A stretch of 42,975 nucleotides of DNA from Acidimicrobiaceae bacterium (GTDB lineage Bacteria; Actinomycetota; Acidimicrobiia; Acidimicrobiales; JACDCH01): the NCBI GenBank assembly GCA_041166685.1, contig JBEEGD010000001.1:1-42975 (forward strand), written 5' to 3'. The notes beneath the pieces are model-generated. The model saw nothing but the letters and a program-made list of their open reading frames with translations. It searched no databases and was not told the DNA's origin. Both the position numbers and the translations under genes were made by a program. Below are positions 3,291-32,135 of this stretch, piece by piece. Every line of letters starts with the position of its first letter. Position 1 is the stretch's first letter.

Positions 3291-3596
3291 TCCGACGAGC
3301 GACGCACGGCGAACGCGGGGGCGCGCGAACAGCACCTTCCGTCGTGCGACTCGACGGTCCGGTCGAGCACGACCGCAACGGTCACTCTGGGCCGGATCGT
3401 TTCGCCCGCGTCAGTCTGAGCATGGACCCGTTTGTGCACGCGTGTGCCCTCTGCAACGTTCGGCCGCTTCGAGCGCCAGGGTCAGGCCCGTTGTAGTCAT
3501 CAAAGATGACGCGTCGGGGTCATGGTGTGTACTTACTGGGTGACCGAAAGTGGTGTCACGCCCACGTAGTGTGTGCCTCGAGTTGATCGGTGTTCG

Positions 3597-6359
3597 ATGA
3601 GTGTCGCTGTCCAGCTGTTGAAGTACGCCAGCATCGCGACGTTCGGCGCGCTCACGATCGCCTGCCTTCGGCAGTGGCGACGTCAGGGCGACACGAGCAT
3701 CCGGTGGGCGACCGCCGCGTTCGGATCGCTCGCCGCGATCAGCCTGATCGGGCTCGCGCTGCAGGAGCCGGCGACGAGAGGATTCTTCCTCTGGTTCATC
3801 AAGGCGCTCCTCGTGGTCCTGCTTCTGTTCCCGTATTTTCTGTACCGCTTCGCCACCGCCTTCGAGCGACCCACGTGGCGTGTCAGCCTGCCCGCTCGGG
3901 TCTCGACGGGCGTCGTTGTCGTTTGGAGCGTGGCGGTTCCGTACTTCCCGCTGCCCGGCGCGCCGGAACCGCTGTGGTGGTCGCTGTACCGCGTTGCGAT
4001 CCTTTGTCAATGGACGATCCTGTTCGCCATCGTCGCCGCGCGACTGTGGGGCGCCGGCCGTCACGAGGTGGGCGTTGCGCGCCGTCGTATGCGGACCCTC
4101 GCGTTGGCGGCCACCGGCATGAACGCGGCCATTCTGCTGTCTGGCGTTGCCCAGGCGCCGCAGTCCGAGAGCATGGTCCTCGTCACCCAGTCGCTGTTCG
4201 TCGCGTCATCGGCCCTGTTCTTCGTAGGTCTCGCCCCGCCGGGATGGCTGCTCCGGCTCTGGCGTCGCCCAGAGGAGTTGGCCATGCAGGCAGCCATGAC
4301 CGCGCTGTTCCGCGCGGAGACGCAGAGGGAGCTGGCCGCGGTGCTTCTGCCGCGGGTCATCGGGATGGTCGGCGCTCGCGGCTCCGCGCTGGTGACGCGA
4401 TCCGGCGAGCTCCTCGGGTGCCATGGATCCACCGATGCTGACGACACGATCGTGCGGCTTGCGAACGCACCGACCGGTACGACGCTTCCCGGCGTACATC
4501 GAGTCGAGATGCGCACCGGCACATTGTTGATTTGGACCAGCCCGTATGCGCCGTTCTTCGGGCGTGACGAATTCGCGATGACCGAAAGCCTCGGGGTGTT
4601 TGCCGACATCGTCATGGAGCGCTGCGTGCTCGCCGAGCAGCGCGCACAGGCCGAAGAAGCACTCGTGTACCAGGCCCTCCACGACGCCCTCACCGGGTTG
4701 CCCAATCGGATCCTCTTCATGGATCGCCTGACCCACGCGCAGACGAGCCTCGAACGCCGCGGCGGAGCCCTGAGCGTGCTGTTCCTCGATCTCGACCGAT
4801 TCAAGCTCGTCAACGACACGATCGACCATCTTGCGGGCGACGCCCTCCTGCAAGCGGTCGCTCAACGGCTCACCGACGCCCTCCGTACGGGCGACACGGT
4901 GGCCCGGTTCGGAGGCGACGAGTTCGTGATTCTCGCCGAGGTCAGCGGGGAGCGTGAAGCGCTCGAGCTCGGCAGCCGGTTGATCGAGGCGCTCAGCACG
5001 CCCTTCTTGGTGGCCGAGCGGGAGCTGTCGGTCACCGCCAGCGTCGGCGTGGTCGTGACCCGGGATCATCAAGATCCTGTGCTTCTCGTCCGGGACGCTG
5101 ACGTCGCGATGTACCGAGCGAAAGAAGCGGGTCGTGCCCGAGTCGAGCTGTTCGACGAGCGCGTGCGCCTCGCCAGCGTCGACCGGCTGGGCATGGAGCG
5201 CGAACTCGGGCGGGCCATAGAAGAGAGATCTCTCGCTCTCCACTACCAGCCGATGGTCAGACTCGGCGACGGGGTGGTCGTGGGCGTCGAGGCCCTGCTC
5301 CGGTGGCATCACCCGAGACTCGGCATGGTCTTGCCTGGTGAGTTCATCCCGCTGGCGGAGGAGTCAGATCTCATCGTCGACGTCGGCACCTTTGCGCTGG
5401 AGGAGGCGTGCCGCCAGGCACGAGCGTGGCGCGAGACGATTCCGGGCCTGGACGAACTCGTCGTGTGGGTGAACGTGTCCGGCGCCCAGTTCAATCGGGC
5501 GGATGTGCCCGCGGCTGTCGCACGCGCGCTCGAAGCGAACGGGCTATCGCCCAGCGCGCTCGGGTTGGAGATCACCGAGTCGGTGTTCGTCAAGCAGACC
5601 GACACCCTGCGCTGTGCGCTGACGAAACTTCGTGCCCTGGGCGTTGGCATCGCCATCGACGACTTCGGGACGGGGTTCTCGTCCTTGGGTCGCCTCAAGG
5701 ACCTCCCCGCAGATGTGATCAAGATCGACGGCTGCTTCGTGCGCGGCCTCGGACAGACCGCGCAGGACTCGGCGATCGTCGCTGCCTGCGTGGCGCTGGC
5801 GGACGCGCTCGACCTCACCGCGGTTGCCGAGTGCATCGAAACGGAAGACCAGCTCGCCGCGCTGGTCGCGGAGCGGTGTCCGTACGGGCAGGGCTACTAC
5901 TTCAGCGCTCCGCTTCCCGCCGACGCGGCCACGGACTACCTGCGCCAGCACAACACAGCGACCGAATCGACGGCAGTCGGCGCCCGGGCTCGGTCCCGGC
6001 GCAGCACGCCGGTCGCGCTCATCTGCGACGACGAGTCGTCGGCCCGATTCCTGTACCGCTCGGCGCTCGAGTCGGCCGGCGCCGAGGTGCAGACGGTGGG
6101 AGACGCCGCCGCATGCATCGAATGGGCGATCGAACACCGACCCGACCTGGCTCTCGTCGACCTCTGCATGCCCGGTCACGACGGGCTATGGACCATCACG
6201 GAGCTACGCCGGCGGTGCCCGGACACCCGCGTCGTGCTCATGAGTGCTGATCCGGACCTGGAACGATTTCGGCTGGGACTCGAGTCCGGCGCCGACGAAT
6301 GCCTCGCCAAGGACGACGTCATCACGCGGCTCGACGACCTTCTGCTTCGCATCGCGTAG
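3597..6359 (+). CDS. Membrane-bound c-di-GMP turnover protein: ~7TM N-terminus, GAF-like region, GGDEF, EAL, C-terminal receiver (REC)
   Basis: About seven hydrophobic helices occupy the first ~230 aa. GGDEF domain: LTGLPNR ... RFGGDEFVIL. EAL domain: EALLRWHHP, DDFGTGFSSL, KIDGCFV. REC domain: ICDDES, LALVDLCMPGHDG, VVLMSAD, CLAKD. ATG 3597 is preferred over the upstream GTG 3573. Confidence 0.9.
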   Translation: MSVAVQLLKYASIATFGALTIACLRQWRRQGDTSIRWATAAFGSLAAISLIGLALQEPATRGFFLWFIKALLVVLLLFPYFLYRFATAFERPTWRVSLPARVSTGVVVVWSVAVPYFPLPGAPEPLWWSLYRVAILCQWTILFAIVAARLWGAGRHEVGVARRRMRTLALAATGMNAAILLSGVAQAPQSESMVLVTQSLFVASSALFFVGLAPPGWLLRLWRRPEELAMQAAMTALFRAETQRELAAVLLPRVIGMVGARGSALVTRSGELLGCHGSTDADDTIVRLANAPTGTTLPGVHRVEMRTGTLLIWTSPYAPFFGRDEFAMTESLGVFADIVMERCVLAEQRAQAEEALVYQALHDALTGLPNRILFMDRLTHAQTSLERRGGALSVLFLDLDRFKLVNDTIDHLAGDALLQAVAQRLTDALRTGDTVARFGGDEFVILAEVSGEREALELGSRLIEALSTPFLVAERELSVTASVGVVVTRDHQDPVLLVRDADVAMYRAKEAGRARVELFDERVRLASVDRLGMERELGRAIEERSLALHYQPMVRLGDGVVVGVEALLRWHHPRLGMVLPGEFIPLAEESDLIVDVGTFALEEACRQARAWRETIPGLDELVVWVNVSGAQFNRADVPAAVARALEANGLSPSALGLEITESVFVKQTDTLRCALTKLRALGVGIAIDDFGTGFSSLGRLKDLPADVIKIDGCFVRGLGQTAQDSAIVAACVALADALDLTAVAECIETEDQLAALVAERCPYGQGYYFSAPLPADAATDYLRQHNTATESTAVGARARSRRSTPVALICDDESSARFLYRSALESAGAEVQTVGDAAACIEWAIEHRPDLALVDLCMPGHDGLWTITELRRRCPDTRVVLMSADPDLERFRLGLESGADECLAKDDVITRLDDLLLRIA

Positions 6360-6485
6360 GCGCGCCATCGCGACGTCCGCAACGTCGCTGGCGTATTGAC
6401 TGCGCGTTCGCGAAACAGGTGGATCGAGATGCCGCGCTGCGCCTCGTTGGTGGGAGGGCGGGCGGCAATAGTGTCTCGGGTAGGC

Positions 6486-7928
6486 ATGGACGGGGACGCG
6501 TACCAGCAGCTACAGGCGAAGCTTGTCGCGCTCTGGCCGACGATTCGATCGCTCAGCGACGAGGAGCAGACCATCGTCGTCGTGCCCTCCATCTCGATGG
6601 TCGACCTCGCCGAGGACCTCGTTCCGCTCCTTCCGGCGTACGAGGAGCGGTACCTGTTTCTCCTGCTCTTGCTCCGACAGCGACGCGCCAATGTCGTGTA
6701 CGTCACCAGCCAGCCGGTCCTCCCTCGGCTGGTCGACTACTACCTCAGCCTCATTCCGGACGTCGACCTCGCCGACGCCCGTCGGCGCTTGTCGATGGTC
6801 TCGGTTGGGGACCCGACGTTCCGGCCGCTGAGCGCCAAGCTGCTCGATCGACCGGAGATCCTGGAGCGACTGCGCGGGCTCGTGGTCGACGTCGACCGGG
6901 CGCACCTCGTGCCGTTCACAACCAGCTCACTCGAGGCCGCCCTCGCCGTGGAGCTCGGCATCCCGATGTATGGCGCTGATCCATCGTTGCTCGACTTCGG
7001 TTCCAAGAGCGGGAGTCGTCGCGTGTTCGACGCCGTTGGCGTGCAGCATCCGCGCGGCTTCGAGAACCTGAGGAGCTTGGAGGAGGTGGCGGGTGCGCTC
7101 GCCGATCTTCCCGCCGCCGAGGCAGTCATCAAGCTGAACCACGGCATCGGTGGACTCGGAAATGCCATCGTGCACGGTGCCGACGAACGACATGTCGCGG
7201 CGCTCGTCGACCTGCTCCGCACGCAAGGCGTCGACCCTGCCCTCGTCGAGAAGGAGGGGGCGATCGTCGAAGAGCGGATCGTCGGCGACGAACTACGGAG
7301 CCCGAGCGCGCAGCTGCGCGTGACCCCCGAGGGCGACGTCGAACTGCTCTCGACCCACGATCAGTTGCTCGACCACGAACGAGCGCAGGACTACATCGGC
7401 TGCCGCTTCCCCGCTGATCCCGCGTACGTCGATGCGATCACGGATGCCAGTCGTCGTGTCGGGCGACACCTGGCGGATGCCGGCGTGCTCGGCCGGTTCG
7501 CCATCGATTTCGTCGCAGTGCGACGGGCGACGCGCGAGTGGGACACGTACGCCATCGAGATCAACCTACGCAAGGGCGGCACCACCCATCCGTTCCTCAC
7601 CATGCAGCTGCTGACCGACGGCAGCTACGACGCCGGGACCGGAACGTTCACCACATCCGCGGGGGCGGCACGGTGCTACATCGCGGTCGACCATCTGCAC
7701 GAGCCGGGATTCGAGCGGCTTGTTGCCGACGACGTTCTGGACCTCGCCGCGCGTGACGCCGCGCTGCAGTGGGACCACGCGCGGCAGGTTGGTGTGGTGT
7801 TCCACATGCTGAGCGCGCTCCCGGTCGCCGGTCGGGTCGGGCTCACTGCCATCGCGGAGACATCGGCGGCCGCTGACGCGCTGTACGAAGGGGTGCGCGA
7901 TCGACTGCTCGCCGTGTGCGGCCCGTAG
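6486..7928 (+). CDS. ATP-grasp protein related to peptide ligase PGM1 (pre-ATP-grasp plus ATP-grasp)
   Basis: ATG 6486 is the chosen start. IVVVPSISM..., YLFLLLLLRQRRANVVYVTSQPV and AIEINLRKGGTTHP are motifs I associate with the PGM1-related ligase family. Confidence 0.6.
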   Translation: MDGDAYQQLQAKLVALWPTIRSLSDEEQTIVVVPSISMVDLAEDLVPLLPAYEERYLFLLLLLRQRRANVVYVTSQPVLPRLVDYYLSLIPDVDLADARRRLSMVSVGDPTFRPLSAKLLDRPEILERLRGLVVDVDRAHLVPFTTSSLEAALAVELGIPMYGADPSLLDFGSKSGSRRVFDAVGVQHPRGFENLRSLEEVAGALADLPAAEAVIKLNHGIGGLGNAIVHGADERHVAALVDLLRTQGVDPALVEKEGAIVEERIVGDELRSPSAQLRVTPEGDVELLSTHDQLLDHERAQDYIGCRFPADPAYVDAITDASRRVGRHLADAGVLGRFAIDFVAVRRATREWDTYAIEINLRKGGTTHPFLTMQLLTDGSYDAGTGTFTTSAGAARCYIAVDHLHEPGFERLVADDVLDLAARDAALQWDHARQVGVVFHMLSALPVAGRVGLTAIAETSAAADALYEGVRDRLLAVCGP

Positions 7929-7950
7929 GTGCCGGACGTCTAGACGCGAC

Positions 7951-7980
7951 GAAGGCCCTCGACGAACAAAGAGGGCCTTC
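7951..7980. terminator. Bidirectional hairpin terminator between convergent genes
   Basis: GAAGGCCCTC gacgaacaaa GAGGGCCTTC forms a perfect 10-bp GC-rich stem. It lies 23 nt after the stop at 7928 and 88 nt after the stop at 8068. Confidence 0.7.
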
Positions 7981-8067
7981 GCGCGACAGGGAGATGCACC
8001 CTTACCTGTTCTGGTGTCGGCCGGACCGAGCCGTCAGAACAGACGCGTTCGCGCTAGGCGATCGCGA

Positions 8068-9603
8068 TCAGTAGCGGGGTTCGACGAAATCGCCCTGCGG
8101 CATCCAGCACGTGCAGGAAGAGTCGTACACCATCGTGCGGATGGCGTCGGCTCCGTCGACCTTGCCCGGTCCGTAGGAGAAGCCGCCGTACAAGGGGTAC
8201 GCGATGCGGCCGATCTGCTGCAGGCCGTCCACGTACTTGGCGCGTGTCAGTTCCGGACCCGAGGCCGTAGTCCCCCTCACCAGCAGGTCGATCAGCCCGC
8301 AGGCGGAGTCCATCGCGCTGTAGGCGTTGTCGGATCGCTGGGGATCGGTGCCCGTACCCCGGGCGTAGATCTCGCGGCAGGCCGCGTCGACCGCTGGCTC
8401 GGGGGCGCCGATCCGCCACTCGCCGGTCCTTGCAGTCGTGACAGCGACCGCTTGGAAGGACGCGGGCATGGCCATGACGGCGATGTCGTTGCTCATCGGG
8501 CCGAAGTCGGACGCGAAGTACAGAGGTTGGTACGCGCTCCTGTCGGCCTGCTGGACGAACTGCGTCCCGAGGATGAAGTCGGTGAGCACGAACACGGCGT
8601 CTACGTTCTTCGTCCGCATCTCCTGGACGGCGAGGGGGACTTCGGATGCGGCTCTCCCGTCGTCCATCGAGAAGTCGACCCGGTGGACCACCTCGTAGCC
8701 GAACTGCTGGAGGGTGGCGATCAACCCGTCTTTCACCGTCTGGACCGTGCCCGGAAAGTCTCGGACGAGGATCCCGATGCGCTTGCCCTTGAGCAGACCG
8801 CGCGCATCGAGCAGGTAGGCCAGGTTGGCCAGCGAGCGCAGTCCCGACGCGTTGATGGTGAACAGGTTGCCGCCCGACTGCTGGTACCAGGACGGCGGTG
8901 TGCCGAACGAACCGAGCGCGATGAGCGGTGTGTGATTCTGGTCGGTGAAGCACCGCGCGCCTTGCTCGTTGAGACCGCCGCCGCTGTCGATCGCCGCAAA
9001 GATTTCGTGGTCCTGCGTCGCACTGAGGCAAGCGGCCTGGGAAGACGCTTGGTTCGTCGGGTCGTAGCTCACGAACACCGGGACGATCTGGCGCCCGTAC
9101 ACGCCACCTTGGGCATTGATGTTGTCGATGAAGATCCGGATGTAGGCCTGCTGCTCCTCGACGTTGAAACCGGGAACCCCGAAACCCAGTTGGGACAGTG
9201 AGCCCAAGTCGGCGAGCAGAAACGCGATCGTGACGGTCGTGGGCGTCACGCCGTGGTCGCTGGCCGTGAGTCCGGCAACGCCCTCGGTCCCGCCGGCCAG
9301 CGCGGTCGAACCGGATGCAGTTCCGCCCGCCGCGGTCCCCGCCGCACCACCCGCTCCCGTCGGTGTCGCCTCGGCGCCCGCGGGGCCCGCGGGCCCCCCG
9401 CTTGACGATGCGCCCGACTGCGTCGCCTTGTTGGTGCCGGCGAGTGGGTTGGGCGCCGCGGTGGTGACGGAGTCGAGCGATGTCCCGAACACAAACGGGA
9501 TGCTGAGTCCGGCGGCCAACATGGCGGTGACGACGCCGATGATCAGCGTGTACGTGCGGGATCGACTCCGGAACCCGAGGTCGGGCTGTCGAGGGAGTTT
9601 CAT
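8068..9603 (-). CDS. Liv/HAAT-type ABC substrate-binding protein (locus 1), membrane-anchored
   Basis: ATG 9603 overlaps the upstream stop (ATGA). It has an N-terminal TM helix TYTLIIGVVTAMLAAGLSIPFVF and a ~90-aa Gly/Ala/Thr/Ser linker. A type-I periplasmic-binding fold follows (VTIAFLLADLG, GKRIGILVRDFPG). Confidence 0.8.
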   Translation of the reverse strand: MKLPRQPDLGFRSRSRTYTLIIGVVTAMLAAGLSIPFVFGTSLDSVTTAAPNPLAGTNKATQSGASSSGGPAGPAGAEATPTGAGGAAGTAAGGTASGSTALAGGTEGVAGLTASDHGVTPTTVTIAFLLADLGSLSQLGFGVPGFNVEEQQAYIRIFIDNINAQGGVYGRQIVPVFVSYDPTNQASSQAACLSATQDHEIFAAIDSGGGLNEQGARCFTDQNHTPLIALGSFGTPPSWYQQSGGNLFTINASGLRSLANLAYLLDARGLLKGKRIGILVRDFPGTVQTVKDGLIATLQQFGYEVVHRVDFSMDDGRAASEVPLAVQEMRTKNVDAVFVLTDFILGTQFVQQADRSAYQPLYFASDFGPMSNDIAVMAMPASFQAVAVTTARTGEWRIGAPEPAVDAACREIYARGTGTDPQRSDNAYSAMDSACGLIDLLVRGTTASGPELTRAKYVDGLQQIGRIAYPLYGGFSYGPGKVDGADAIRTMVYDSSCTCWMPQGDFVEPRY

Positions 9604-10880
9604 TGTCGGGCTCCATCATTCACGGCGACGGCGAGGACTGCCCAATGGGCAGGGTCCGCGCCAGCGCCTTCGTTGGCGACAAGGAGCTGGCCCAAGGTCA
9701 GCGCCAAAGCGGATGGCGTGTCGAGCGGGATCGGCCCCTCACCGGGCGGGCTGATCCGCCAGGACTCCGCTCCGCCCGGCGCGATCGCGACGATCGCGCC
9801 GGTGCTGCGGAGCACCACGTAGGCCGTACCACTACTACCGACGGCCAGCGGTCCCGGCTCGTCGCCGCGCGCAAACAACGCCGCGAGCGTGAGCGCGCCG
9901 GCGGTGCCGTCAGCGTTGACCGTCACCCGGTAAAGACCACCGGCGGCGGGCGCCGACGGGTCGAAGGTCGTGCCGACGGTGAACTCGACCGCGTCATCGC
10001 TCACCGCCAGCCCGTACGGTCCATCACCGGCCGCGAAGTACGGGGTCTGGTACCAGACCTCCGGAACCTGGTCGCCACGACGAAGCCGCCAGACGGTGTC
10101 TTGGGTGGGGTCGGTGACGAACAGGTCGCCGCGCGCGTCGTGCGCGGCGGCAACCGGGAACGGTTTGCGGTCGTCCGCACCCTGCTGACAGGGACTCGCT
10201 CCGAGTGAGACGAGACACGCGGGAAGGTCCGGGATCTCCGCCAAGAGCTGCTGCGCGCCAGAGATCATGTCGATGTCGAGGATGCGCGCTCCGTCCGGGT
10301 CGAGCACGGCGACATGACCCGTCACCGGATCAAGAGCCGCTCCGGTGAGTCCACGGACGTGTTCGCTCGGTTGGCCGGCGATGGTGTGGTCGACGGTTTG
10401 CTTCCCCTTGGCATCGAAGGCGAAGACGTGGGACGGGCCCTGGTCGCCGTGCGCGGTGCCGTTGTCGGTCGTGACGTAGACGGTTCCGTCGCGACCGACG
10501 GCCAGGCCGCCCGGCGCTCCCGGATGGTCGACGCGAGCGAACGTGGTGGTCGTGAGCAGAGGCGGCGCGGGTGCCGGAGCGCCGGAGATGCCTGGAGGCA
10601 GTCCCGGCGCCGTAGCCCCCCCTGGGGCGGGCGCGGCGACCGGCCGCGACGGCCGGGCGGCGACCCCGGGAGAAGGAGGAAGCGCCGCGCTCGTGGTCGT
10701 AGGAGTGACACCGGTCGTCTGCGTGCCGCGCGGGTTGAGCGGGTTGACGCCGACGCGGGCCGGCACGGTTCTGGTGCGCAGCACGGCCGGGACCCCCGCC
10801 GCGGTCAGCAGCACCGCGAGCGTGAGCGCGATGGCCGTCGTGTACGCCTGGCCTTCGGTGAGGTTGAGCCGGCGGATCAT
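9600..10880 (-). CDS. Membrane-anchored extracytoplasmic beta-propeller protein (SMP-30/gluconolactonase/NHL-like)
   Basis: ATG 10880 overlaps the stop of the LivHMG fusion (ATGA, 10877-10880). The maximal ORF up to 11039 is an Arg-rich extension. It has a TM helix AIALTLAVLLTAAGVPAV and a Pro/Ala/Thr linker. Repeated blade motifs follow: GLAVGRDGTVYVTTDNG, GHVAVLDPDGARILDID, GDLFVTDPTQDTVWRL, GGLYRVTV, GTAYVVLRSTGAIVAI. Confidence 0.65.
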   Translation of the reverse strand: MIRRLNLTEGQAYTTAIALTLAVLLTAAGVPAVLRTRTVPARVGVNPLNPRGTQTTGVTPTTTSAALPPSPGVAARPSRPVAAPAPGGATAPGLPPGISGAPAPAPPLLTTTTFARVDHPGAPGGLAVGRDGTVYVTTDNGTAHGDQGPSHVFAFDAKGKQTVDHTIAGQPSEHVRGLTGAALDPVTGHVAVLDPDGARILDIDMISGAQQLLAEIPDLPACLVSLGASPCQQGADDRKPFPVAAAHDARGDLFVTDPTQDTVWRLRRGDQVPEVWYQTPYFAAGDGPYGLAVSDDAVEFTVGTTFDPSAPAAGGLYRVTVNADGTAGALTLAALFARGDEPGPLAVGSSGTAYVVLRSTGAIVAIAPGGAESWRISPPGEGPIPLDTPSALALTLGQLLVANEGAGADPAHWAVLAVAVNDGARQ

Positions 10881-13741
10881 GACGTCGACCGAGTGGGACG
10901 TCGACGCGGCGGGCGTTTGGGTTCTCCGTTGCCGCCGGCGACGCCGCTGCGGTCGATGGCCCGTTGGTCGGTGCCGAGGTAGGCGGCGATCACCGCCGGA
11001 TCGCGTCGGACCTGCTCTGGCAGACCTTCGGCGATGCACTTGCCGGCGGCCAGGCAGTACACGCGGTCCGAGATGCTCATGACGAGCGGAATGTCGTGCT
11101 CGATGAGAACGATGGTCGCGCCGAGCTCGTCTTGAATTCGTTTGATGAGCGGTCCGAATGCTTCGGTCTCTCGCTGGGCGACGCCCGCAGTCGGCTCGTC
11201 GAGGAGGAGCAACGACGAGCTCTGCGCGAGGAGGCAGGCCATCTCGACGATGCGGCGGGTGCCGGTCGACAGCGTGCCGACGAACGCGTCGGCGTACCGG
11301 CCCAGTCCGAGAAAGTCGATGCAGTCGGCCGCGTCGCTCGCTTTGCGGAGTTCGGCGCGCCGAGATGGCGGCAGGCTCAACAACGAGGGGACCAGCTCGC
11401 TGCGCTCGTGCGTCTCGAGCGCGATCTTCACGGTCTCGCGCACCGTGAGGTCGCTGAACAGCCGGGCGTCCTGGAAGACACGACCAAGGCCGTGACGCGC
11501 TCGCTCGTGCGCGGGCAGGTCAGTTACGTCTGCGCCGGAGACGATGATGCGGCCGGCATCGGCAGCCACGAAGCCGCTGATGACGTTCAAGAGCGTCGAC
11601 TTGCCAGCACCGTTGGAACCGATGAGCCCGACCACCTCGCCGCGGTCGGCGGTGATGCTCACCGCATCGAGCGCGCTGCGACCACCGAAGCGGACGGTGA
11701 CATCGATCGCCACCAGGGCGGGGACGGTGGGATCCTCCGCTGTCGTCACGGGCCGCGCTGGCAGTTGCCGGACGGCCACCCCTGCGGCCTCGACGGGAGG
11801 TGCGGTGGGGGGGAGGCGCCGGGCGGCGAACCCGAGCAGTGCATCGCGGGCGCGATGAACGACCTCGATGAGGCCGCCCGGGAGATACAGCAGCAGGATC
11901 AGCAGACCGATCCCACTGCTGAGCAACGCAACCGTCTGCGAGTCGCCCCAGAGCGCCGGCAGGCCGACCACGTACACGGCACCGAGGATGGCGCCGGGCA
12001 CCGACCCCAGGCCACCGATCACGACCATCGCGACGACCTGCAGCGAGATCTGGGGCCCGAATGTCGTGGTGCCGACCTGGATGTCGAGCCCCGCCAGCAG
12101 GGCCCCGGCGAGCGCGGCGAAGCCGCCGCCGAGGGCAAACGCGGTGAGCTTGGCGACCGTCGGCGACACGGAGAAGGCAGACGAGCTGGCCTCGTTGTCG
12201 CGAACGGCGATCAACGAGCGCCCGATGCCAGTGCCGCGAAGATGCCCGACCATCGCAGCGCACACCAGCAGCACCGCGAGGCACAAGTAGTAGTACGTGC
12301 GCTCCGGGCTCAAGTCCATCAGGCCGAACAACTTGTCGCGCGGCATGATCAGGACACCCTGGCCGCCGGTGAGGACGTCGAGATTGAAGGCCCAGTTCGA
12401 CGCCGCGACCGCAAAGCCGAGCGTGGTGACCGCGAGGAACACGCCCTGTACTCGCAGGGCCGGGAAGCCCACGGCGACGGCGACGAACACTCCGGCGACG
12501 GTGGCGTAGGCCACGGCCACGGGAAAGCTCATCCCTCGGTTGACGAGGGCGGTCGCGGTGATGGCGCCGAGACCAACGAAGGCGAACTGGCCGAGGCTCA
12601 GCTGACCGGCCCAGCCCGACAGGATCGTCACCGACAGGCCCACGATGGCGAAGATCAACACCCGGGACAACAAGTAGGTGCGGCTCGCACTCGTGACCAC
12701 GAGCGGAAGCGCGACCGCGAACGCCACCGCAACCGCGGCGGTGAGCGGTCCGATCCGCCGCACCCACCACACCCCGCGGAGTCGTTCCGGAATCGCGGCG
12801 ATCCGCGGTGTCAGCGACCAGCCACCCTCCTCGTGCGCCGCCCGGTTGGCGCGCACGAAGACCAACACGAGCACGAGGACGAAGAAGACAGCGTCAACCA
12901 CTCCGGGAGTGCGGACATTGACGAACAGGATCGCCTCCACCACTCCGATGACGACGCCGCCCACCAACGCCCACGACACGGAGGTCAGCCCCCCGAACAG
13001 CCCAGCGGCCAGGGCGCGCAGGAGGAGGCTCGGTCCGAGCGCCTGCGAAGGCACGCCGACGATGGTGCCGCGCATCGGGTTGATGAGTACCGCGGTCATG
13101 GTCGACAACACACCCGCGATGACCCACACGAGCGTGGACACTCGCTTGGTCGAGATGCCGGACAGCTCGGCGCGGTCCGGGTTCACTGCCGCGGCCCTGA
13201 TGGCGATTCCGTACGGCGTGCGGTTCAAGAACAGCAGGAGGGCCACGATGCTCGCGGGGACGAACGCGATGATCATGAAGTGCTGGCTCGAGAGCACCAG
13301 CGAGCCCACGGTCAAGGTGCGATCGATCGGTGACGGGTAACGCCCGGGAGTGTCGATCGCGGGCAGCAGCAGCTGCGCGACGAGCGCAAGCTGCGACACG
13401 CCGATGGTCGCGACCATCAGCACTACGCGCGGCGCCTTGAACAGACGGCGCACGATCCCGAGCTCGATCGCCGCACCCACCAGCCCGCCGAGTGCGAGCA
13501 CGAGGGGGAGTGCGAGGAAGAAGTTCCAGTGCTCGTCGAGGACCAGCTTGGCGAGAACGGCAGCGCCGAATGCTCCGATCTCGCCGTGGGCGAAGTTGAT
13601 GACGCGGGTCGCGCGGTAGACGAGCACGAGTCCGGCGGCGAGGACGGCGTACGTGAGACCGGTGAGCACTCCGATGATGACGATCTCCTGGCTGATGTCC
13701 CAGCTTCCGATCGAGATCGCGATCACCGAGGAAGTGGTCAT
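10877..13741 (-). CDS. Triple fusion LivH-LivM-LivG (two HAAT permease domains plus an ABC ATPase)
   Basis: LivH-like region: VINFAHGEIGAFGA. LivM-like region: ILSGWAGQLSLGQFAFVGLGA. The NBD spans about 10877-11716, with Walker A GSNGAGKST, signature LSTGTRR and Walker B LLLDEPTAG. ATG 13741 shares one base with the upstream TGA (TGATG). Confidence 0.9.
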   Translation of the reverse strand: MTTSSVIAISIGSWDISQEIVIIGVLTGLTYAVLAAGLVLVYRATRVINFAHGEIGAFGAAVLAKLVLDEHWNFFLALPLVLALGGLVGAAIELGIVRRLFKAPRVVLMVATIGVSQLALVAQLLLPAIDTPGRYPSPIDRTLTVGSLVLSSQHFMIIAFVPASIVALLLFLNRTPYGIAIRAAAVNPDRAELSGISTKRVSTLVWVIAGVLSTMTAVLINPMRGTIVGVPSQALGPSLLLRALAAGLFGGLTSVSWALVGGVVIGVVEAILFVNVRTPGVVDAVFFVLVLVLVFVRANRAAHEEGGWSLTPRIAAIPERLRGVWWVRRIGPLTAAVAVAFAVALPLVVTSASRTYLLSRVLIFAIVGLSVTILSGWAGQLSLGQFAFVGLGAITATALVNRGMSFPVAVAYATVAGVFVAVAVGFPALRVQGVFLAVTTLGFAVAASNWAFNLDVLTGGQGVLIMPRDKLFGLMDLSPERTYYYLCLAVLLVCAAMVGHLRGTGIGRSLIAVRDNEASSSAFSVSPTVAKLTAFALGGGFAALAGALLAGLDIQVGTTTFGPQISLQVVAMVVIGGLGSVPGAILGAVYVVGLPALWGDSQTVALLSSGIGLLILLLYLPGGLIEVVHRARDALLGFAARRLPPTAPPVEAAGVAVRQLPARPVTTAEDPTVPALVAIDVTVRFGGRSALDAVSITADRGEVVGLIGSNGAGKSTLLNVISGFVAADAGRIIVSGADVTDLPAHERARHGLGRVFQDARLFSDLTVRETVKIALETHERSELVPSLLSLPPSRRAELRKASDAADCIDFLGLGRYADAFVGTLSTGTRRIVEMACLLAQSSSLLLLDEPTAGVAQRETEAFGPLIKRIQDELGATIVLIEHDIPLVMSISDRVYCLAAGKCIAEGLPEQVRRDPAVIAAYLGTDQRAIDRSGVAGGNGEPKRPPRRRPTRSTS

Positions 13742-15789
13742 CAACCGCCCTCGCCGCCGAGGAACACGGCGCGCACCAAGTCGTCGCGTTCGAGGAGGTC
13801 GGCCGCGGGCCCCTCGAAGCGCACTTCGCCCTTCTCCATGAACACCGCGCGGTCGGCTACTGCGAGCGCGACGTTGATGGACTGCTCGACGATCACAATC
13901 GTGAGCCCCGCGGCTTTGAGCTGCTCCACGATCGCGAGCAACTGCTGCACGACCACCGGCGCAAGACCGAGGCTGAGCTCGTCGATCAGCAGGATCTGCG
14001 GCTCCAGCAGCAATCCCGCTGCCAACCCGAGCATCTGCTGCTCACCGCCCGACAGCGTCTCGGCCGGTTGATCGAGGCGATCAGCCAGCACCGGGAACAG
14101 CTCGAGCACTTTGTCGATACGCGCGGCGAGCTGCTCTCTGTCCCAGATGAAGGTGTACGCGCCGGCCAACAGGTTCTCCGCGACCGACAGCGTCGGGAAG
14201 ATCGCGCTGCCGCCCGGCACTTGGACGATGCCCAGCCGCACTCGGGTGCCGGGGTCGGCGAAGGTGACAGTGCGACCGCCGAGACGCACCACCCCGCGAT
14301 CCGCGAAGCCGAGACCGCTGATCGCTCGGAGCAACGTCGACTTGCCGGCGCCGTTGGTGCCCAACAGCGCGAGCACCTCTCCCTTGCGAACATCCAGGTT
14401 GACGTCGAACAGGACCTGGACCGGCCCGTACGAATAGTCGAGGTGGCGGATCTGGAGCATGGGCACGTCCGCGCCGGCCGCCATGCGGGCGCGCTCGTCG
14501 CGCTCCTCCACGAGCTCGCTTGCGGCCATGGCCATGTCCTGACGCACGAAGCGCGCGCCGTAGGCGATGAGGGCGCCACCGATGATCGCCGCCGGTGGCG
14601 TCACCAGGACGAGCGCGGCGCGATCGCCGAGTGACTCGGCGATGGTGCCGACGACGAGGGCGCCGCCCAGCCCGCCGATCAGCGACAAGTACAGCCCGAT
14701 GGTGGCGAAGCCCATCGATCGGAGGCGGTAAGGCGTCACCGCCGCGACCAATCCGGTGAGCGGCACGAAAGCGGCGAACACCACTGCGGAACCGATCGCA
14801 CTGACGGCGGTGAACAGGACGACGTTGGGCATGAAAAGCGAGATGGGGACGAGCAATCCGAAGGCGGCGACGAGGGCTCCGCTGAGCCGCACCGCGCTCT
14901 CGGGCGCGCGGCGGAAGAGGCGGTCGCCTGCGGTTCCACCGACCACGACGCCGACGACGCCCCCGAGCGAGCCGACGCTGCCGACGACACCGCGCCCTCC
15001 CGGACCGAGGTCGAAGTGCCGCTCGAGGAACAAGTTGAAGTAGATCGGCGCGGTCACGAACGCGAGGCCCAACGCGCCGAGTGCGCACAAGAAGAAATAG
15101 AACGTCCGGATCTTTTTCAGCCTGGCGAAGGCGGCCGAGATAGGGATCCGAAGCTCACCTTCGTCCGACATCTCTTCGCCGAGCACCGACTGCATCTCGT
15201 TGCGACCACGCTTCGGCTCGGGCAGCCCGAACGCGACGAGCGCCAACAGTGCCGCCGGAATCGACAACACCACGAAGGCCCACCGCCAGCCCAAGTCTCC
15301 ACCGGCGACCGCGGCCACGCCTCCGGCCAGCACCGGACCGATCACCAGACCCACGGGTTGTGCCGCGCGGTGCAAGGCGTAGATCCGGTTGCGGCCCTCG
15401 ATCGGGTAGGCGTCGGCCAACAGTGCGCTGTGGACGGGTTGCTCGTTGGCCTTCCCGAGGCCGGCTGCACCCCACGCGACGACCAGTTGCCAAACGGCCT
15501 GCGCCGCGCCCGTCAGCATCACGAATGCGGCCCAGCCGAGAGAGCAGAGGCCGACGAGCGTGGTGCGCCGGGTCCGGTCGCCGAGATAGCCGAGTGGGAT
15601 CGCGGCCGCGAAGATCACCAGGCCCCCCAGCGCACCGACCACGCCGAGCATGAGGTCCGACATTCGGAGCGACTTCTGGATGTCGGGGCCGAGCACCGCG
15701 AACGCCGAGTTGCTCAGGTTGTCGACCAACACGAGGCCGGCGAGCACACCGATCATCGAGATCCCGCCGGCCCGCAGGACCTCATTCAT
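13741..15789 (-). CDS. Fusion of a 12-TM MFS permease with a LivF-type ABC ATPase
   Basis: The ORF is continuous. The MFS part has motif A GYLGDRTRRTTL and about 12 hydrophobic segments. The LivF NBD starts at MLQIRHL (codon 14458-14460), with Walker A GTNGAGKST, LSGGEQQML and LLIDELS. I chose ATG 15789. In-frame GTGs at 15954/15957 are possible, because the acidic 55-aa stretch between them has coding-like GC3. Confidence 0.85.
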   Translation of the reverse strand: MNEVLRAGGISMIGVLAGLVLVDNLSNSAFAVLGPDIQKSLRMSDLMLGVVGALGGLVIFAAAIPLGYLGDRTRRTTLVGLCSLGWAAFVMLTGAAQAVWQLVVAWGAAGLGKANEQPVHSALLADAYPIEGRNRIYALHRAAQPVGLVIGPVLAGGVAAVAGGDLGWRWAFVVLSIPAALLALVAFGLPEPKRGRNEMQSVLGEEMSDEGELRIPISAAFARLKKIRTFYFFLCALGALGLAFVTAPIYFNLFLERHFDLGPGGRGVVGSVGSLGGVVGVVVGGTAGDRLFRRAPESAVRLSGALVAAFGLLVPISLFMPNVVLFTAVSAIGSAVVFAAFVPLTGLVAAVTPYRLRSMGFATIGLYLSLIGGLGGALVVGTIAESLGDRAALVLVTPPAAIIGGALIAYGARFVRQDMAMAASELVEERDERARMAAGADVPMLQIRHLDYSYGPVQVLFDVNLDVRKGEVLALLGTNGAGKSTLLRAISGLGFADRGVVRLGGRTVTFADPGTRVRLGIVQVPGGSAIFPTLSVAENLLAGAYTFIWDREQLAARIDKVLELFPVLADRLDQPAETLSGGEQQMLGLAAGLLLEPQILLIDELSLGLAPVVVQQLLAIVEQLKAAGLTIVIVEQSINVALAVADRAVFMEKGEVRFEGPAADLLERDDLVRAVFLGGEGG

Positions 15790-16005
15790 CGCCAGGTCCT
15801 CTGACCCGACACCGGGGAGAAGGTCGTCGGTGATGATCGGCTGGTCGACGGCCGCCGACTGCGCGTCGTGCCGCCGAGCCTCCTCGTCGAGCACGGCGGT
15901 CGCCAACGTCGCGGGGTCCGCGCGTTGAACCGATTCTTGGTCGCTCCCCAGCACCACGATCAAGTCAACACGCTTTCTCGACGACGCGCCCCATAGGGTC
16001 TCGGC

Positions 16006-17232
16006 GTGCTGGGGATCGACGACCGACTGGTCGCAGCCGACCTGTGGCGCGACCCGTATCCACTGTTCGAACGCCTGCGCCGAGAGGCCCCTGTGTGGCG
16101 TCTGCCCGGTGAGACCGCATTCCTCGTCTCGACGTGGGCGTTGGTCACCGACGCGACCCGTCGGGTCGAGGATTTCTCCAACCACTTTCGCTACACGCTG
16201 TTCAGCAATGACGACGGAACCCTGGGCGCGCTCGAAACAGGAGCCATGGGGCCGGACGTCTTCGCCGGCGCCGACCCACCGATTCACGGACCGCAGCGCA
16301 AGATCTTCTTCGCGGAGTTGGTGCAGCAGAAGATGGCGGCCATCGAGCCCTTCGTCGGCGAGTTGACGGACGAGTTGCTCGACGGCTTACTGGCCGCGCC
16401 GCGCGGCGATGCCGCAGCCGCGTTGGCACACCCGCTACCGATGCGCGTGGTCGCGGAACGCGTCATCGGGTTCCACGATCCTGACGTCGGTCAGATCGAA
16501 CGCTGGATGTTCGACGGAGCGCGGCTCGTCGGCGGCCTCCTGACGCTCGACCAGATGTCGGCACTCAGCGGTGACGTCGCGGGAATGCTCAGCTGGACGA
16601 CCGAGCAGTTCGACCTTGCGCTCGCGTCGCCCGGCCGCGGTGGCGTCCTCAGCGCGGCAGCCGCTGCGGTTCACGACGGCAGGCTGACGCACGACGAGGC
16701 GGTCTTCACACTGATGGTGCTCGTCGGTGCCGGCGCGGAGACGACGACCAGCCTCATCGGAATCGCCATCGGACTGCTGGCGGAGCACCCCGTGCTGCAG
16801 GCCGAGCTACGCGCCGACCCCACGAAGGTGCCGGCCTTCATCGAAGAGGTGCTGCGCTTCGACTCACCCTTTCGCTATCACCCTCGCACCGCGGCACGCA
16901 CGGTGGAGTTGGGCGGCGTCGAGATCCCAGAAGGCGCGCTGGTGCTCTTGTTGTGGAGCGCGGCGAACCGCGACGAGACGGTGTTCGAGCGTCCCGACGA
17001 GCTGGTCCTCGACCGCAGCAACGTCCATCTGCATTTCGGCTTCGGTCGCGGCATTCACCACTGCGTCGGCGCCGCGCTCGCGAGGCTCGAAGCGCGGGTG
17101 GTGTTGACGAAGCTTCTGGAGCGCACCGCGTCCTTCACGCTCGACACCGACCGGCCACCGCGTTGGGCCGACAGTATTTGGATCCACCGTCACGAGGAGC
17201 TCCCGATCGTGTTCGAGACCCACGATGCCTGA
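16006..17232 (+). CDS. Cytochrome P450
   Basis: Heme loop FGFGRGIHHCVGAALA, ExxR (EEVLRF) and I-helix GAGAETTTS are present. The start is GTG 16006. Confidence 0.95.
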   Translation: MLGIDDRLVAADLWRDPYPLFERLRREAPVWRLPGETAFLVSTWALVTDATRRVEDFSNHFRYTLFSNDDGTLGALETGAMGPDVFAGADPPIHGPQRKIFFAELVQQKMAAIEPFVGELTDELLDGLLAAPRGDAAAALAHPLPMRVVAERVIGFHDPDVGQIERWMFDGARLVGGLLTLDQMSALSGDVAGMLSWTTEQFDLALASPGRGGVLSAAAAAVHDGRLTHDEAVFTLMVLVGAGAETTTSLIGIAIGLLAEHPVLQAELRADPTKVPAFIEEVLRFDSPFRYHPRTAARTVELGGVEIPEGALVLLLWSAANRDETVFERPDELVLDRSNVHLHFGFGRGIHHCVGAALARLEARVVLTKLLERTASFTLDTDRPPRWADSIWIHRHEELPIVFETHDA

Positions 17233-18034
17233 GGCGACCGTCAACGGCGTGCGGTTGGCCTACGACGTCCACGGCGAAGGCGAACCGGTTCTGCTGATCT
17301 GCGCCACGGGGCAGCCTGCGTTCGCGTGGAGCATGTCGCAGGTCCCGGCGCTCACCGGCGCGGGCTACCAGGTGATCACGTTCGACAATCGCGGCGTGGC
17401 ACCGTCGGAGGCGCCCCCTGCGCCGTACACCGTGCAAGGGATGGCCGAGGACGCCGCCGCGCTCCTCGAGCACCTCGACGTCGGGCGCTGCCGGGTCGCC
17501 GGCTATTCGCTGGGCGCCCTCATCGCGCAGGAGTTGGCCTTGGCCCGGCCTGACCTCGTGCAGGCCGCGGTGATGATGGGCACGATGGGTCGCCAGGACG
17601 TGTTTCGCACGGCGCTCACCGCGTCCTGGGTGGAGCAGGACCTCAGTGGCATCGAGTTGCCCCGGCTGTGCGACGTCGTGTCGAGCGCGTTCGCATTGTT
17701 CTCACCGCAGACGTTGTGCGACGACGACGCGATGAGCTTGTTCATCGAGGCGACCGTGGCCATGCCGCCATGGAACGGTCCGGGACGGCTCGGCCAGCAT
17801 CAGGCCGACATGGCGTACCAGGATCGGCTTGACGCGCTCGCCGGCATCCGCGTGCCGTGCCTTGTGATCGGATTCGAGCTCGACATGGGCATCGCCGCGT
17901 CGCTCTGCCGCGAGGTGGCCAGCGTGATCCCCAGATGCCAGTACATCGAGATCGCGGGTGCCGGACACAGCGGCCCCTTCGAGAAGCCCGACGAGGTCAA
18001 CTCGGCCCTCCTCGACTTCTTTCGGGACGCGTGA
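17225..18034 (+). CDS. Alpha/beta hydrolase
   Basis: ATG 17225 overlaps the P450 stop by 8 nt. It has the nucleophile elbow GYSLGA and a C-terminal GAGHSGPFEKP motif. Confidence 0.85.
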   Translation: MPEATVNGVRLAYDVHGEGEPVLLICATGQPAFAWSMSQVPALTGAGYQVITFDNRGVAPSEAPPAPYTVQGMAEDAAALLEHLDVGRCRVAGYSLGALIAQELALARPDLVQAAVMMGTMGRQDVFRTALTASWVEQDLSGIELPRLCDVVSSAFALFSPQTLCDDDAMSLFIEATVAMPPWNGPGRLGQHQADMAYQDRLDALAGIRVPCLVIGFELDMGIAASLCREVASVIPRCQYIEIAGAGHSGPFEKPDEVNSALLDFFRDA

Positions 18035-28520: not shown

Positions 28521-28622
28521 GGCTTCACCTTCGGATCGCCGTAGCGAGAAGGGAGCGACCGCTCCGAGCACACCGAGACTTCACGAGTCGACCGGATGTG
28601 CACAATATCGTACACATATTCG

Positions 28623-30020
28623 ATGCCGATCGCAAGCCAATCCGAAGGAAATTCTCGAGTCCGTGTGGCGGCCAGACTGACCGTGGTGGTCAAGGTTCCT
28701 GAGACGAGGTACGCGCAGGTCGGTGACGCCGATGTGGCCTACAAGGTGGGCGGTGACGGCCCGCGGGATCTCGTCTACTTCTTCGGAGTGGGATCTCACC
28801 TCGAGTTGATGTGGGACGACCGACTTTTCGGATCGACCTACACGAGGCTGGCGTCGTTCAGCCGACTGATCGCTTTCAACCGCCGCGGCACGGGCGCTTC
28901 GGACAGGGTCCTGCTGGGTGCCCTTCCAACCTGGGAGGACTGGTCCGAGGATGTGCAGGCAGTGATGGATGCCGCCGGTTCCGAGCGAGCCGCCCTCATC
29001 GCCGGGCAGGACGCGGGACCGATCGCCATGCTGTTTGCTGCATCTCATCCAGAACGGATCAGCGCGCTCGTCCTCATCAACAGCAGCGCCCGATTGCGGA
29101 TTGCCGATGACTATCCGAATGGGTTCACCCCGGAGTTCATCGATGAGTGGGTCGAGCAGGTTGCTCGCCTGTGGGGAACACCCGACCTCGTGCGAAGCCT
29201 GATGCCGAGCGCGGCGGAGGACGCCGAGTTCGTCGACCTCATGGCGATGGTTCAGCGTGCGTCGGCGACGCCGCGGAGCGCAGCTGCGCAGGCTCGGCAC
29301 ATGGCGGACATGGACGTCCGCGATGTGTTGCCGCTCATCCAGGCGCCCACGCTGATCCTTCAGGGCAGAAGTTCGTTGGCCTCCATTGAGCACGGCCGGT
29401 ACCTCGCCGCCCACATCCCAGGTGCCCGATTCATCGAAACTGCCGGCGATGACCCGATCATGAACCCCAGCGACCTCTTGGCGATCACCGACGACATTGC
29501 CGAGTTCCTGACCGGCGAGCGCCCTCAGGTCGAGGTCGAGCGCATTCTGACGACGGTGCTCTTCACCGACATCGTCGGATCAACCGAGCGCGCCGCGACG
29601 CTGGGCGACGCTCGGTGGCGAGCGCTTCTCGATTCGCACGATCGAGCGGTGCGGGAACAGTTGCGGCGGTTCCGGGGTCGCGAGATCAAGACCACGGGCG
29701 ACGGGTTCATGGTGGCATTCGACGGCCCGGCGCGCGCGATCCGTTGTGCGACCGCGATCACACAGGTGGCGCACGAGATCGGCATCGAGGCGCGCGCCGG
29801 TCTGCACACCGGCGAGTGCGAGATTCGTGGCGATGACCTCGGAGGATTGGCCGTTCACATCGCCGCGAGGGTGGGAGCGAAGGCCGGGTCGGGAGAGGTG
29901 CTGGTCTCCAGCACGGTGAAGGATCTCGTGGTGGGGTCAGGCCTCGAGTTCCGCGAACGCGGCGAACATGACCTCAAGGGCGTCCCGGGATCATGGAAGC
30001 TGTTCGCCGTCGCGAGCTGA
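28623..30020 (+). CDS. Alpha/beta-hydrolase-fold domain fused to a class III adenylate/guanylate cyclase (LipJ/Rv1900c-like architecture)
   Basis: Hydrolase part: ETRYAQVGDADVAYKV ... ALIAGQDAGPIA. Cyclase part: VLFTDIVGST, EIKTTGDGFMVAF, GLAVHIAARV. The start is uncertain: ATG 28596, ATG 28623 or in-frame GTGs near 28683. Confidence 0.85.
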   Translation: MPIASQSEGNSRVRVAARLTVVVKVPETRYAQVGDADVAYKVGGDGPRDLVYFFGVGSHLELMWDDRLFGSTYTRLASFSRLIAFNRRGTGASDRVLLGALPTWEDWSEDVQAVMDAAGSERAALIAGQDAGPIAMLFAASHPERISALVLINSSARLRIADDYPNGFTPEFIDEWVEQVARLWGTPDLVRSLMPSAAEDAEFVDLMAMVQRASATPRSAAAQARHMADMDVRDVLPLIQAPTLILQGRSSLASIEHGRYLAAHIPGARFIETAGDDPIMNPSDLLAITDDIAEFLTGERPQVEVERILTTVLFTDIVGSTERAATLGDARWRALLDSHDRAVREQLRRFRGREIKTTGDGFMVAFDGPARAIRCATAITQVAHEIGIEARAGLHTGECEIRGDDLGGLAVHIAARVGAKAGSGEVLVSSTVKDLVVGSGLEFRERGEHDLKGVPGSWKLFAVAS

Positions 30021-32104: not shown

Positions 32105-32117
32105 GGACACAGTCTCC

Positions 32118-32135
32118 GCGAGAACGCGTTCTCGC
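32118..32135. promoter_or_regulatory. Perfect 18-bp palindrome with a KstR-like core (candidate TetR-type operator)
   Basis: GCGAGAACGCGTTCTCGC contains AGAACnnGTTCT. It lies 14 nt upstream of ATG 32104 and 46 nt upstream of GTG 32181, in a 76-bp divergent intergenic region. Confidence 0.6.

Follow-up and report, generated by a model that had tools for sequence, protein, structure and literature searches.

A transmembrane-tethered NHL-type propeller protein as a candidate accessory of a Liv/HAAT-type importer in uncultured Actinomycetota

Background

Binding-protein-dependent ATP-binding cassette (ABC) importers have a fixed parts list of permeases, ATPases and a binding protein, and to our knowledge documented extra extracytoplasmic partners are rare, the zinc proteins AztD, ZinT and PhtD being examples. 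Here we describe a possible further case in a stretch of 42,975 nt from an Acidimicrobiaceae bacterium (assembly GCA_041166685.1, contig JBEEGD010000001.1, positions 1 to 42,975), hereafter called the window. The gene in question, at 9600-10880 on the minus strand, lies in an operon between a LivH-LivM-LivG fusion gene (LivHMG) and a binding-protein gene, and encodes a transmembrane helix with a TEGQ motif, a tether and a predicted six-bladed NHL-type beta-propeller. The system would be an ABC importer with an extracytoplasmic accessory, and the forms of the helix and the fusions are new to the literature we searched.

The best natural match of the propeller protein is PknD (profile E 6e-9, Foldseek E 1.5e-11). 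What it shares with PknD (1rwi/1rwl) and the Pizza proteins is the six-bladed NHL propeller, which in PknD stands outside the cell after a single transmembrane helix. The pknD gene is predicted to share an operon with the ABC binding-protein gene pstS2, and its propeller reportedly binds laminin (PMC3322341). PknD carries a cytoplasmic Ser/Thr kinase N-terminal to its transmembrane helix, whereas the window protein has about 8 cytoplasmic residues, and the TEGQ helix, the long Pro/Ala/Thr tether and a 28-residue Cys insert belong to the window family.

AztD is a periplasmic zinc metallochaperone of the aztABCD importer which passes zinc directly to AztC. Like the window protein with its probable Cys-Cys staple, it is a beta-propeller that has a conserved disulfide, and its gene too is part of an ABC-importer operon (PMC6689063). 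It is, however, eight-bladed and soluble, with two conserved His-based Zn sites and a cluster A-I binding protein (PMC6689063), while the window protein is a six-bladed NHL propeller, tethered to the membrane, without conserved His and with a Peripla_BP_6 partner; no homology is implied by the comparison. A further case is LpqB, a beta-propeller lipoprotein that works with the MtrAB two-component system of Actinobacteria (cited in PMC13068155) and is likewise an extracytoplasmic, membrane-attached accessory to a membrane machine; its partner is a histidine kinase and its anchor a lipid.

The superfold of the window protein is also that of SGL proteins, DFPase and virginiamycin B lyase (Foldseek E about 1e-10). 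Unlike these, the window protein stays below the corresponding models, its positions equivalent to the tunnel ligands are non-polar or small as judged by blade register, and the conserved site of its family lies on the loop between blades 2 and 3. Small single-helix transporter subunits are known in KdpF and AcrZ. The TEGQ mini-proteins described below are similar to these in having a single transmembrane helix, in being encoded within a transporter operon where their start and stop codons overlap those of the neighbours, and in being under purifying selection, but there is no sequence relation, and the TEGQ helix also occurs with an extracellular domain of 300 residues or as part of the ATPase chain.

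Our literature searches found no description of a Liv/HAAT importer with a conserved extra transmembrane helix or a propeller accessory, nor of a TEGQ-like helix that is free, fused to LivG or bearing a propeller. The accompanying MFS-LivF and LivHMG fusions with a transmembrane-tethered binding protein were not found described in these searches either.

Results and discussion

A conserved gene between LivHMG and the binding protein

The open reading frame (ORF) runs on the minus strand from an ATG at 10880-10878 to a TGA at 9602-9600 and encodes 426 amino acids. Its start forms a 4-nt ATGA overlap with the stop codon of LivHMG (TGA, 10879-10877), and its stop forms a second one with the start of the binding-protein gene (ATG, 9603-9601), so both the placement and the two overlaps reported in the initial annotation of this DNA were recovered. 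The parts of the gene are as follows.

9600..10880, minus strand: whole propeller gene, a 426-residue single-pass membrane protein with TEGQ helix, linker and six-bladed NHL propeller
10782..10859, minus strand: TEGQ motif and transmembrane helix (residues 8-33), T-E-G-Q-x-Y-T followed by ...IGL..A..L...G.PAVL
10551..10781, minus strand: tether (residues 34-110, 77 residues), disordered and rich in Pro/Ala/Thr/Gly
9624..10550, minus strand: six-bladed NHL-type beta-propeller (residues 111-419), from AlphaFold2, Foldseek and the family profile
10152..10235, minus strand: family-specific 28-residue insert between blades 2 and 3 (residues 216-243), IPDLPACLVSLGASPCQQGADDRKPFP, with two invariant Cys

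This ORF is a genuine conserved gene and not a chance reading frame, since the GC content at third codon positions is 0.81 in its frame and homologues of its product are found among both 90%- and 50%-identity clusters: 38 of the former, at 28-70% identity, and 249 representatives of the latter at E<=1e-30 in an exhaustive profile search. The family is thereby far larger than was seen in scans of genome and metagenome contigs with the family alignment, which depend on a pair of short peptide patterns and yielded 1 and 7 loci. The relatives all come from metagenomes or metagenome-assembled genomes and, going by their source names, belong to Acidimicrobiia, Thermoleophilia and other Actinomycetota. 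The initial annotation had stated that canonical Liv operons have no counterpart of this gene, and in agreement with this the propeller protein matched nothing above threshold in Pfam or NCBIfam (the Pfam NHL model PF01436, of the beta-propeller clan, gave 15 bits against a gathering threshold of 20, and NCBIfam gave no match).

The third junction of the operon, LivF/LivHMG, is overlapped too, by TGATG. A scan of 7800-16400 for promoters and terminators turned up no site that exceeded shuffle expectation, and no terminator separates the genes internally. Because overlaps occur at all three junctions, with no terminator-like site between the genes, translational coupling of all four genes is plausible.

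We defined the TEGQ-helix/propeller family by the motif [TS]-E-G-Q-x-[YW]-[TS] followed by a transmembrane helix, a variable tether and an NHL propeller containing a C-x(5-12)-C-[EQ]-x-G loop, encoded beside LivHMG. The window protein has all of these features, and no curated model covers the family. The strict TEGQ pattern was present in 60 of the 147 newly returned representatives, most of the others with an N-terminal helix having near-variants by eye, and the Cys-loop pattern in 95 of the same 147.

Helix, tether and NHL-type propeller

AlphaFold2, run with 30 homologues, gave a model with a mean predicted local distance difference test score (pLDDT) of 84 and a predicted template modelling score (pTM) of 0.75. 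A helix is predicted for residues 9-27 and disorder for 34-101 (pLDDT <50), and 24 strands over residues 111-419 form six four-stranded blades with pLDDT mostly >90, the first strand (111-116) completing blade 6 in a velcro closure. When compared with the PDB by Foldseek, the model was closest to TRIM71-NHL, Pizza6 and the M. tuberculosis PknD sensor 1rwi (E 3e-12 to 2e-11; target-normalised template modelling score 0.75-0.81 to NHL, Pizza and PknD structures), and next to virginiamycin B lyase, DFPase and an SMP30-like lactonase (E about 1e-10).

At the sequence level, the family profile detected the Pizza proteins (E 5e-16) and PknD (E 6e-9), while a search of the PDB with the single sequence returned only repeat-level matches to designer propellers, the family profile being needed for PknD. 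The NHL model was matched by 15 of the 30 homologues (best E 8e-10); 17 matched the SGL model (PF08450) weakly (best E 9e-7) and two matched Vgb_lyase, and the window protein itself had no SGL match at E<=0.1.

The predicted structure thus confirms a propeller, of NHL rather than SGL type. By its predicted fold, and less clearly by sequence, we place the protein in the NHL propeller superfamily as a new member, with the PknD sensor as its closest natural relative. We do not count it as an SGL/SMP30 member, because it stays below the model threshold and no metal site is evident by blade register (see below). Of the SGL/NHL-like propeller proposed in the initial annotation the propeller and its NHL character therefore stand and the SGL part falls, and the proposed Pro/Ala/Thr linker of about 100 residues exists with a length of about 77 residues, 66% of them P/A/T/G. 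Length and sequence of this tether vary among the homologues. The stretch 'IRRLNL' was considered as a Tat signal and rejected, as the twin Arg is not kept across homologues.

Linkage to the transporter through changes in gene order

Contigs encoding propeller homologues were retrieved and the window proteins mapped onto them. Wherever a locus has sufficient flank, the propeller gene adjoins LivHMG and/or the gene for the tethered binding protein, which amounts to at least 10 distinct contigs (L001/L008, L002/L003, L004/L005/L014, L006, L007, L009-L013, L015, L020 and L021). The adjacency of LivG and propeller, for which the initial annotation had called for a survey, therefore recurs in relatives and is not unique to this genome. 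It spans four different gene orders, among them LivHMG-propeller-binding protein (L001/L008, L002/L003, L009-L013), LivHMG-binding protein-propeller (L004/L005/L014, L006) and binding protein-LivF-LivHMG-propeller (L007). As the linkage survives rearrangement down to 28% identity, it argues for a functional tie between propeller and transporter.

The same observations bear on whether the gene is a functionally unrelated passenger that merely sits in the operon. Such a reading would have to accommodate a linkage kept to 28% identity and through changes of gene order, start and stop codons that overlap those of the neighbours, and an anchor which in one lineage is fused to LivG (below). Synteny and fusion together effectively refute it, and we give it next to no credence.

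One further gene call (P0037, 304 residues, from an ENA contig of 12,261 bases) reads in frame from a LivG C-terminus into a propeller N-terminus. We dismissed this as a LivG-propeller fusion because the second half looks frameshifted, so that a sequencing or assembly error is the probable cause.

The TEGQ helix is the constant element

Ten positions of the N-terminal region (T8, E9, G10, Q11, T14, L19, A22, L25, G29 and L34) are at least 90% conserved in our alignment A1, which is more than one would usually expect of a simple anchor. To these we can add five loci which were picked from the LivHMG match list without reference to the propeller, and which make up an independent sample of five. 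All five keep the TEGQ helix and two keep the propeller. Both of the latter, L020 (LivHMG 63% identical) and L021 (68%), have overlapping propeller genes, of 426 and 431 residues, with the variant motifs SEGDVWT and TPGEVST. In L018 (LivHMG 77%) and L022 (78%), which come from different samples, the place of the propeller gene is taken by small ORFs that overlap both neighbours and contain the anchor and a short tail, e.g. MRNPVGRMARSLRCTEGQAYTLLIGLVIATLLAVGGVPAVLRTHP...

L018:8871-9068: TEGQ mini-protein, 65 residues
L022:7919-8113: TEGQ mini-protein, 64 residues

ORFs as small as these are easily missed by annotation. The fifth locus, L019 (LivHMG 71%), has no separate gene; its LivHMG of 1,062 residues (P0179) ends ...GGILGCTEGQAYTLVIGLILTLTITIGGMSATLH, that is, with the helix on the C-terminus of LivG. 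A 41-residue ORF in the gap between the binding protein and LivHMG of this locus was tried as a candidate and is unrelated to the TEGQ motif.

Since five of five loci keep the helix and two of five keep the propeller, the core element associated with the transporter is the helix, to which the propeller is an optional extracytoplasmic addition. The helix alone is under purifying selection: over the 31-codon helix core of the one mini-ORF pair, dS was 0.52 and dN 0.10 (dN/dS 0.19), with six replacements, all of them conservative, while the tails could not be aligned. In a neighbour-joining tree of LivHMG, drawn without bootstrap, the mini-protein loci form a sister pair inside a propeller-bearing clade and the fused form lies beside another propeller-bearing locus. 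It appears from these two separate positions of the propeller-less forms that the propeller was lost twice independently, with the helix retained.

The fused form also settles the topology. As the anchor in P0179 naturally follows the cytoplasmic C-terminus of LivG, the helix is N-in, which gives independent support to the N-in anchor of the initial annotation. The LivG fusion and the invariant Cys pair place the propeller outside the cell, and we also counted towards this location that the binding protein is tethered in a similar way.

A conserved helix that can even belong to the LivG polypeptide might point to a regulatory sensor, in which a kinase-less PknD-like propeller would sense a ligand and modulate the transporter through the TEGQ helix. 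The layout of a transmembrane helix followed by an extracellular six-bladed NHL propeller is that of PknD, which is moreover predicted to be in an operon with pstS2 (PMC3322341), and relatives of a second propeller in the window (below) are often fused to adenylate cyclases and kinases. On the other hand, only about 8-25 residues are cytoplasmic and no output domain is found among them (there was no Pkinase match in the propeller protein, of which only residues 1-8 precede the helix); a long disordered tether transmits conformational change poorly, and the helix occurs without a propeller in L018, L022 and L019. We regard a sensor as unlikely.

The conserved surface: binding or catalysis

C222 and C231, the sole two Cys of the propeller protein, are invariant in alignment A1 together with G234 and D237. 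Among 107 full-length members, D218, C222, C231, G234, D237, P240, D257, Q260 and W264 are at least 90% conserved, while at R265 and W276 the residue group is kept in >=85%. The insert 216-243 is probably a disulfide-stapled loop on the top face of the propeller, and from the alignment the most conserved surface appears to be this Cys loop with D257, Q260 and W264, a compact patch on the loop and blade 3.

The top face of a propeller is, in the standard topology, made up of the D-A and B-C loops. By this topology the conserved surface would lie on the top face, where 22 of 70 loop residues other than Gly and Pro are at least 80% conserved, as compared with 6 of 36 on the bottom face, all six of the latter being turn-type Asp or Thr.

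This surface could in principle be an active site, the propeller being a surface lactonase, esterase or lyase that turns an external precursor into a form which the binding protein recognises. The initial annotation had mentioned a lactonase or hydrolase and asked for a metal-binding catalytic site. The fold class is indeed that of SMP30/gluconolactonase, DFPase and virginiamycin B lyase, the weak SGL and Vgb_lyase matches of some homologues could be read in the same direction, and the conserved D218, D237, D257, Q260 and R265 could form an active site. The neighbouring genes (P450, alpha/beta-hydrolases, amidohydrolase, luciferase-like oxygenases) look catabolic as well.

Against an enzyme, no His is conserved above 70% in the propeller family alignment, and His is essential in virginiamycin B lyase and in PAL-type NHL enzymes. 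The metal ligands Glu/Asn/Asn/Asp of SMP30/DFPase-type propellers sit just before the strand-A glycine. In the window protein the equivalent positions, assigned by blade register and motif knowledge rather than by superposition, are G124, T179, V243, Y289, G343 and S390. D257 is the generic strand-B Asp of NHL repeats. The window protein, further, reaches no Pfam enzyme family, and its closest relatives are non-catalytic NHL domains. No canonical lactonase-type metal tetrad is evident by blade register, and we found no positive evidence for a lactonase or hydrolase, which leaves a surface enzyme rather doubtful. With no conserved His, no such tetrad and binding-type NHL domains as nearest relatives, the sequences favour binding, capture or docking over a catalytic site of a known type.

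A binding site need not be one for a solute. The propeller might instead be an envelope scaffold or adhesin which binds the wall or a polymer and so positions the transporter or the binding protein. NHL domains are generic interaction platforms, laminin binding has been reported for the PknD propeller (PMC3322341), and the propeller diverges faster than the transporter core: both it and the binding protein have changed at about twice the rate of LivHMG, with identities in L001 of 68% for the propeller, 78% for the binding protein and 87% for LivHMG. The compact, highly conserved polar and aromatic site nevertheless suggests a specific small partner, and the linkage is strictly to one transporter clade, so we find a scaffold or adhesin very improbable.

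Operon partners and neighbouring genes

The other genes of the operon are as follows.

10877..13744, minus strand: upstream partner LivH-LivM-LivG, 955 residues, two BPD_transp_2 domains and an ABC ATPase with a BCA_ABC_TP_C tail (Pfam, NCBIfam)
13741..15967, minus strand: first gene of the operon, MFS_1 and a LivF-type ATPase (maximal ORF to 16287)
8068..9603, minus strand: downstream partner, binding protein of 511 residues with its own N-terminal transmembrane anchor and tether

With BPD_transp_2, LivG with its BCA_ABC_TP_C tail, LivF and, by way of its homologues, a Peripla_BP_6 binding protein, the operon contains the Liv/HAAT-type set. The triple-fusion architecture of LivHMG is common, with 2,725 matches at E<1e-100, and LivHMG was the syntenic partner at each locus that we looked at. 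Some relatives of LivHMG (P0179, P0191) carry a Rho_N-like C-terminal extension.

The first gene product matched Pfam MFS_1 (8e-36) and ABC_tran and NCBIfam LivF (7e-56), and its start at about 15967 was inferred from tblastn, where homologue alignments begin at about residue 124 of the maximal ORF. The MFS_1 domain (about 12 transmembrane helices) on the N-terminus of LivF is kept in most related loci and absent in L002 and L007, and for this reason we consider the propeller to be independent of it. The divergent P450 gene starts at 16006, which would leave a gap of about 40 bp, and one of the two starts may be mis-set; in this gap (15968-16005) the simple scan revealed no sigma-70-like promoter.

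The tether of the binding protein, about 76 residues, is rich in Gly/Ala/Thr. Across eight loci in alignment A2 its anchor (RSR..TY.LI.GVV.GML.AGL.IPFVFG) is conserved and six Cys of the body are invariant. The window protein itself has no Pfam match; homologues at 54-81% identity are Peripla_BP_6 proteins. A search of the PDB with its sequence gave nothing useful and no hint of the substrate.

Divergently upstream of the operon are a P450 gene and an alpha/beta-hydrolase gene, followed by genes for GntR/FCD, amidohydrolase_2, cyclase, luciferase-like oxygenase and SDR proteins, and the context looks catabolic rather than one of amino-acid uptake. Scanning the entire window against Rfam brought up no riboswitch and no RNA family of any other kind, and hence no hint of a ligand. 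The P450 gene (in 16006-18034, plus strand) recurs beside the transporter in L001, L008, L009 and L018; L018 also has the Abhydrolase_1 gene, and L002 a PNP_UDP_1-P450 fusion downstream. The mini-protein loci L018 and L022 have adenosine-deaminase-like and PNP_UDP_1 genes upstream. Such neighbours may hint at the class of substrate.

The opposite strand encodes, immediately downstream of the binding-protein gene, a GGDEF-EAL protein ending in a receiver domain (3573-6359, plus strand) and an ATP-grasp protein (IQCH-like/PGM1_C; 6396-7928, plus strand). Further along, an alpha/beta-hydrolase domain and a class III adenylate/guanylate cyclase domain share a single ORF at 28596-30020 (plus strand).

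A second Liv locus with a different propeller

The window holds a second Liv system, with the following genes.

32043-32912, plus strand: second LivG (LivG2), with a GTGA overlap with the lipoprotein gene
32909-33853, plus strand: lipoprotein propeller, lipobox LVAC
33834-34298, minus strand: membrane protein of 154 residues
34295-35518, minus strand: secreted protein of 407 residues with a signal peptide and a C-terminal transmembrane helix, no Pfam match
35515-36252, minus strand: LivF
36245-38188, minus strand: LivHM fusion
about 38500-39736, plus strand: divergent Peripla_BP_6 binding protein

The lipoprotein was modelled with a pLDDT of 91.5, and its best Foldseek matches were seven-bladed (E. 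coli YncE, template modelling score 0.79; YVTN domains; virginiamycin B lyase), so a YncE/YVTN-like propeller is predicted. An hhalign comparison of the first family profile with this second propeller gave a probability of 9%, at which homology is not demonstrable. Fusions to adenylate cyclases or kinases are frequent among its relatives, in keeping with use as a sensor domain. The layout, with LivG-propeller convergent with LivHM-LivF and the 407- and 154-residue proteins, and a binding-protein gene alongside, is conserved in L016 and L017 at 45-49% identity, where the 407- and 154-residue proteins hold the same positions.

Two propeller families, each overlapping or coupled to a LivG, are thus found within one 43-kb contig, which suggests that LivG-propeller coupling is a recurrent theme in these bacteria.

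Proposed role of the propeller protein

We propose that the protein is a TEGQ-helix accessory subunit of an actinobacterial Liv/HAAT-type importer, with the propeller as a non-catalytic binding module, and we consider this proposal about evenly poised between right and wrong. The importer would consist of MFS-LivF, LivH-LivM-LivG and the transmembrane-tethered binding protein. The TEGQ motif and helix would insert N-in and pack on the membrane part of LivHMG/(MFS-)LivF as a small subunit, bearing the NHL propeller outside the cell on its flexible tether of about 77 residues, beside the likewise tethered binding protein. The site on the top face of the propeller (the D218...D237 Cys loop with D257/Q260/W264/R265) may bind the solute, a bulkier precursor or the binding protein. 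Substrate would in this way be concentrated locally and passed to the binding protein beside the translocator, much as AztD hands zinc to AztC. We infer the association of helix and transporter, the binding role and the hand-off. Since the transporter seems to have outlasted two losses of the propeller, the propeller would act as an enhancer or specificity module and not as a requirement for transport.

A number of points weigh against this proposal. It should be noted that the faces were assigned, and a metal site judged absent, from blade register and standard topology instead of measured geometry, and that the conserved Asp/Gln/Trp/Arg cluster might be a catalytic site of a new kind or a Ca2+ site. 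Enzymes that share the fold were only about ten-fold weaker by Foldseek, and the weak SGL matches in 17 of the 30 homologues speak in the same sense. The dN/dS value comes from 31 codons of one sequence pair, the LivHMG tree has no bootstrap support, and the apparent double loss means that the propeller is not needed for basic transport.

More tentatively, we speculate on a wider interpretation, which seems possible to us and still less probable than not: a large actinobacterial Liv/HAAT clade may have an obligatory TEGQ helix as a fifth component and as a socket for a plug-in propeller receptor. The helix would be free, fused to LivG or carrying a domain, and the propeller, as a second and primary receptor, would feed the tethered binding protein. 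Such an ABC importer would have two receptors, and the same logic would have evolved independently with the YncE-like lipoprotein of the second Liv locus.

Conclusions

The family comprises at least 249 clusters at 50% identity, has so far been met in uncultured Actinomycetota only and is tied to one fusion-rich Liv clade. The series of forms, helix with propeller, helix alone and helix on LivG, separates two functions and gives testable predictions, namely that the helix docks on the translocator and that the propeller modulates capture or affinity and not transport itself. If true, this would add a new class of small subunit and a new receptor layer to the ABC importers, and it would help to annotate thousands of 'hypothetical', 'YncE-like' and 'streptogramin lyase' genes in soil metagenomes.

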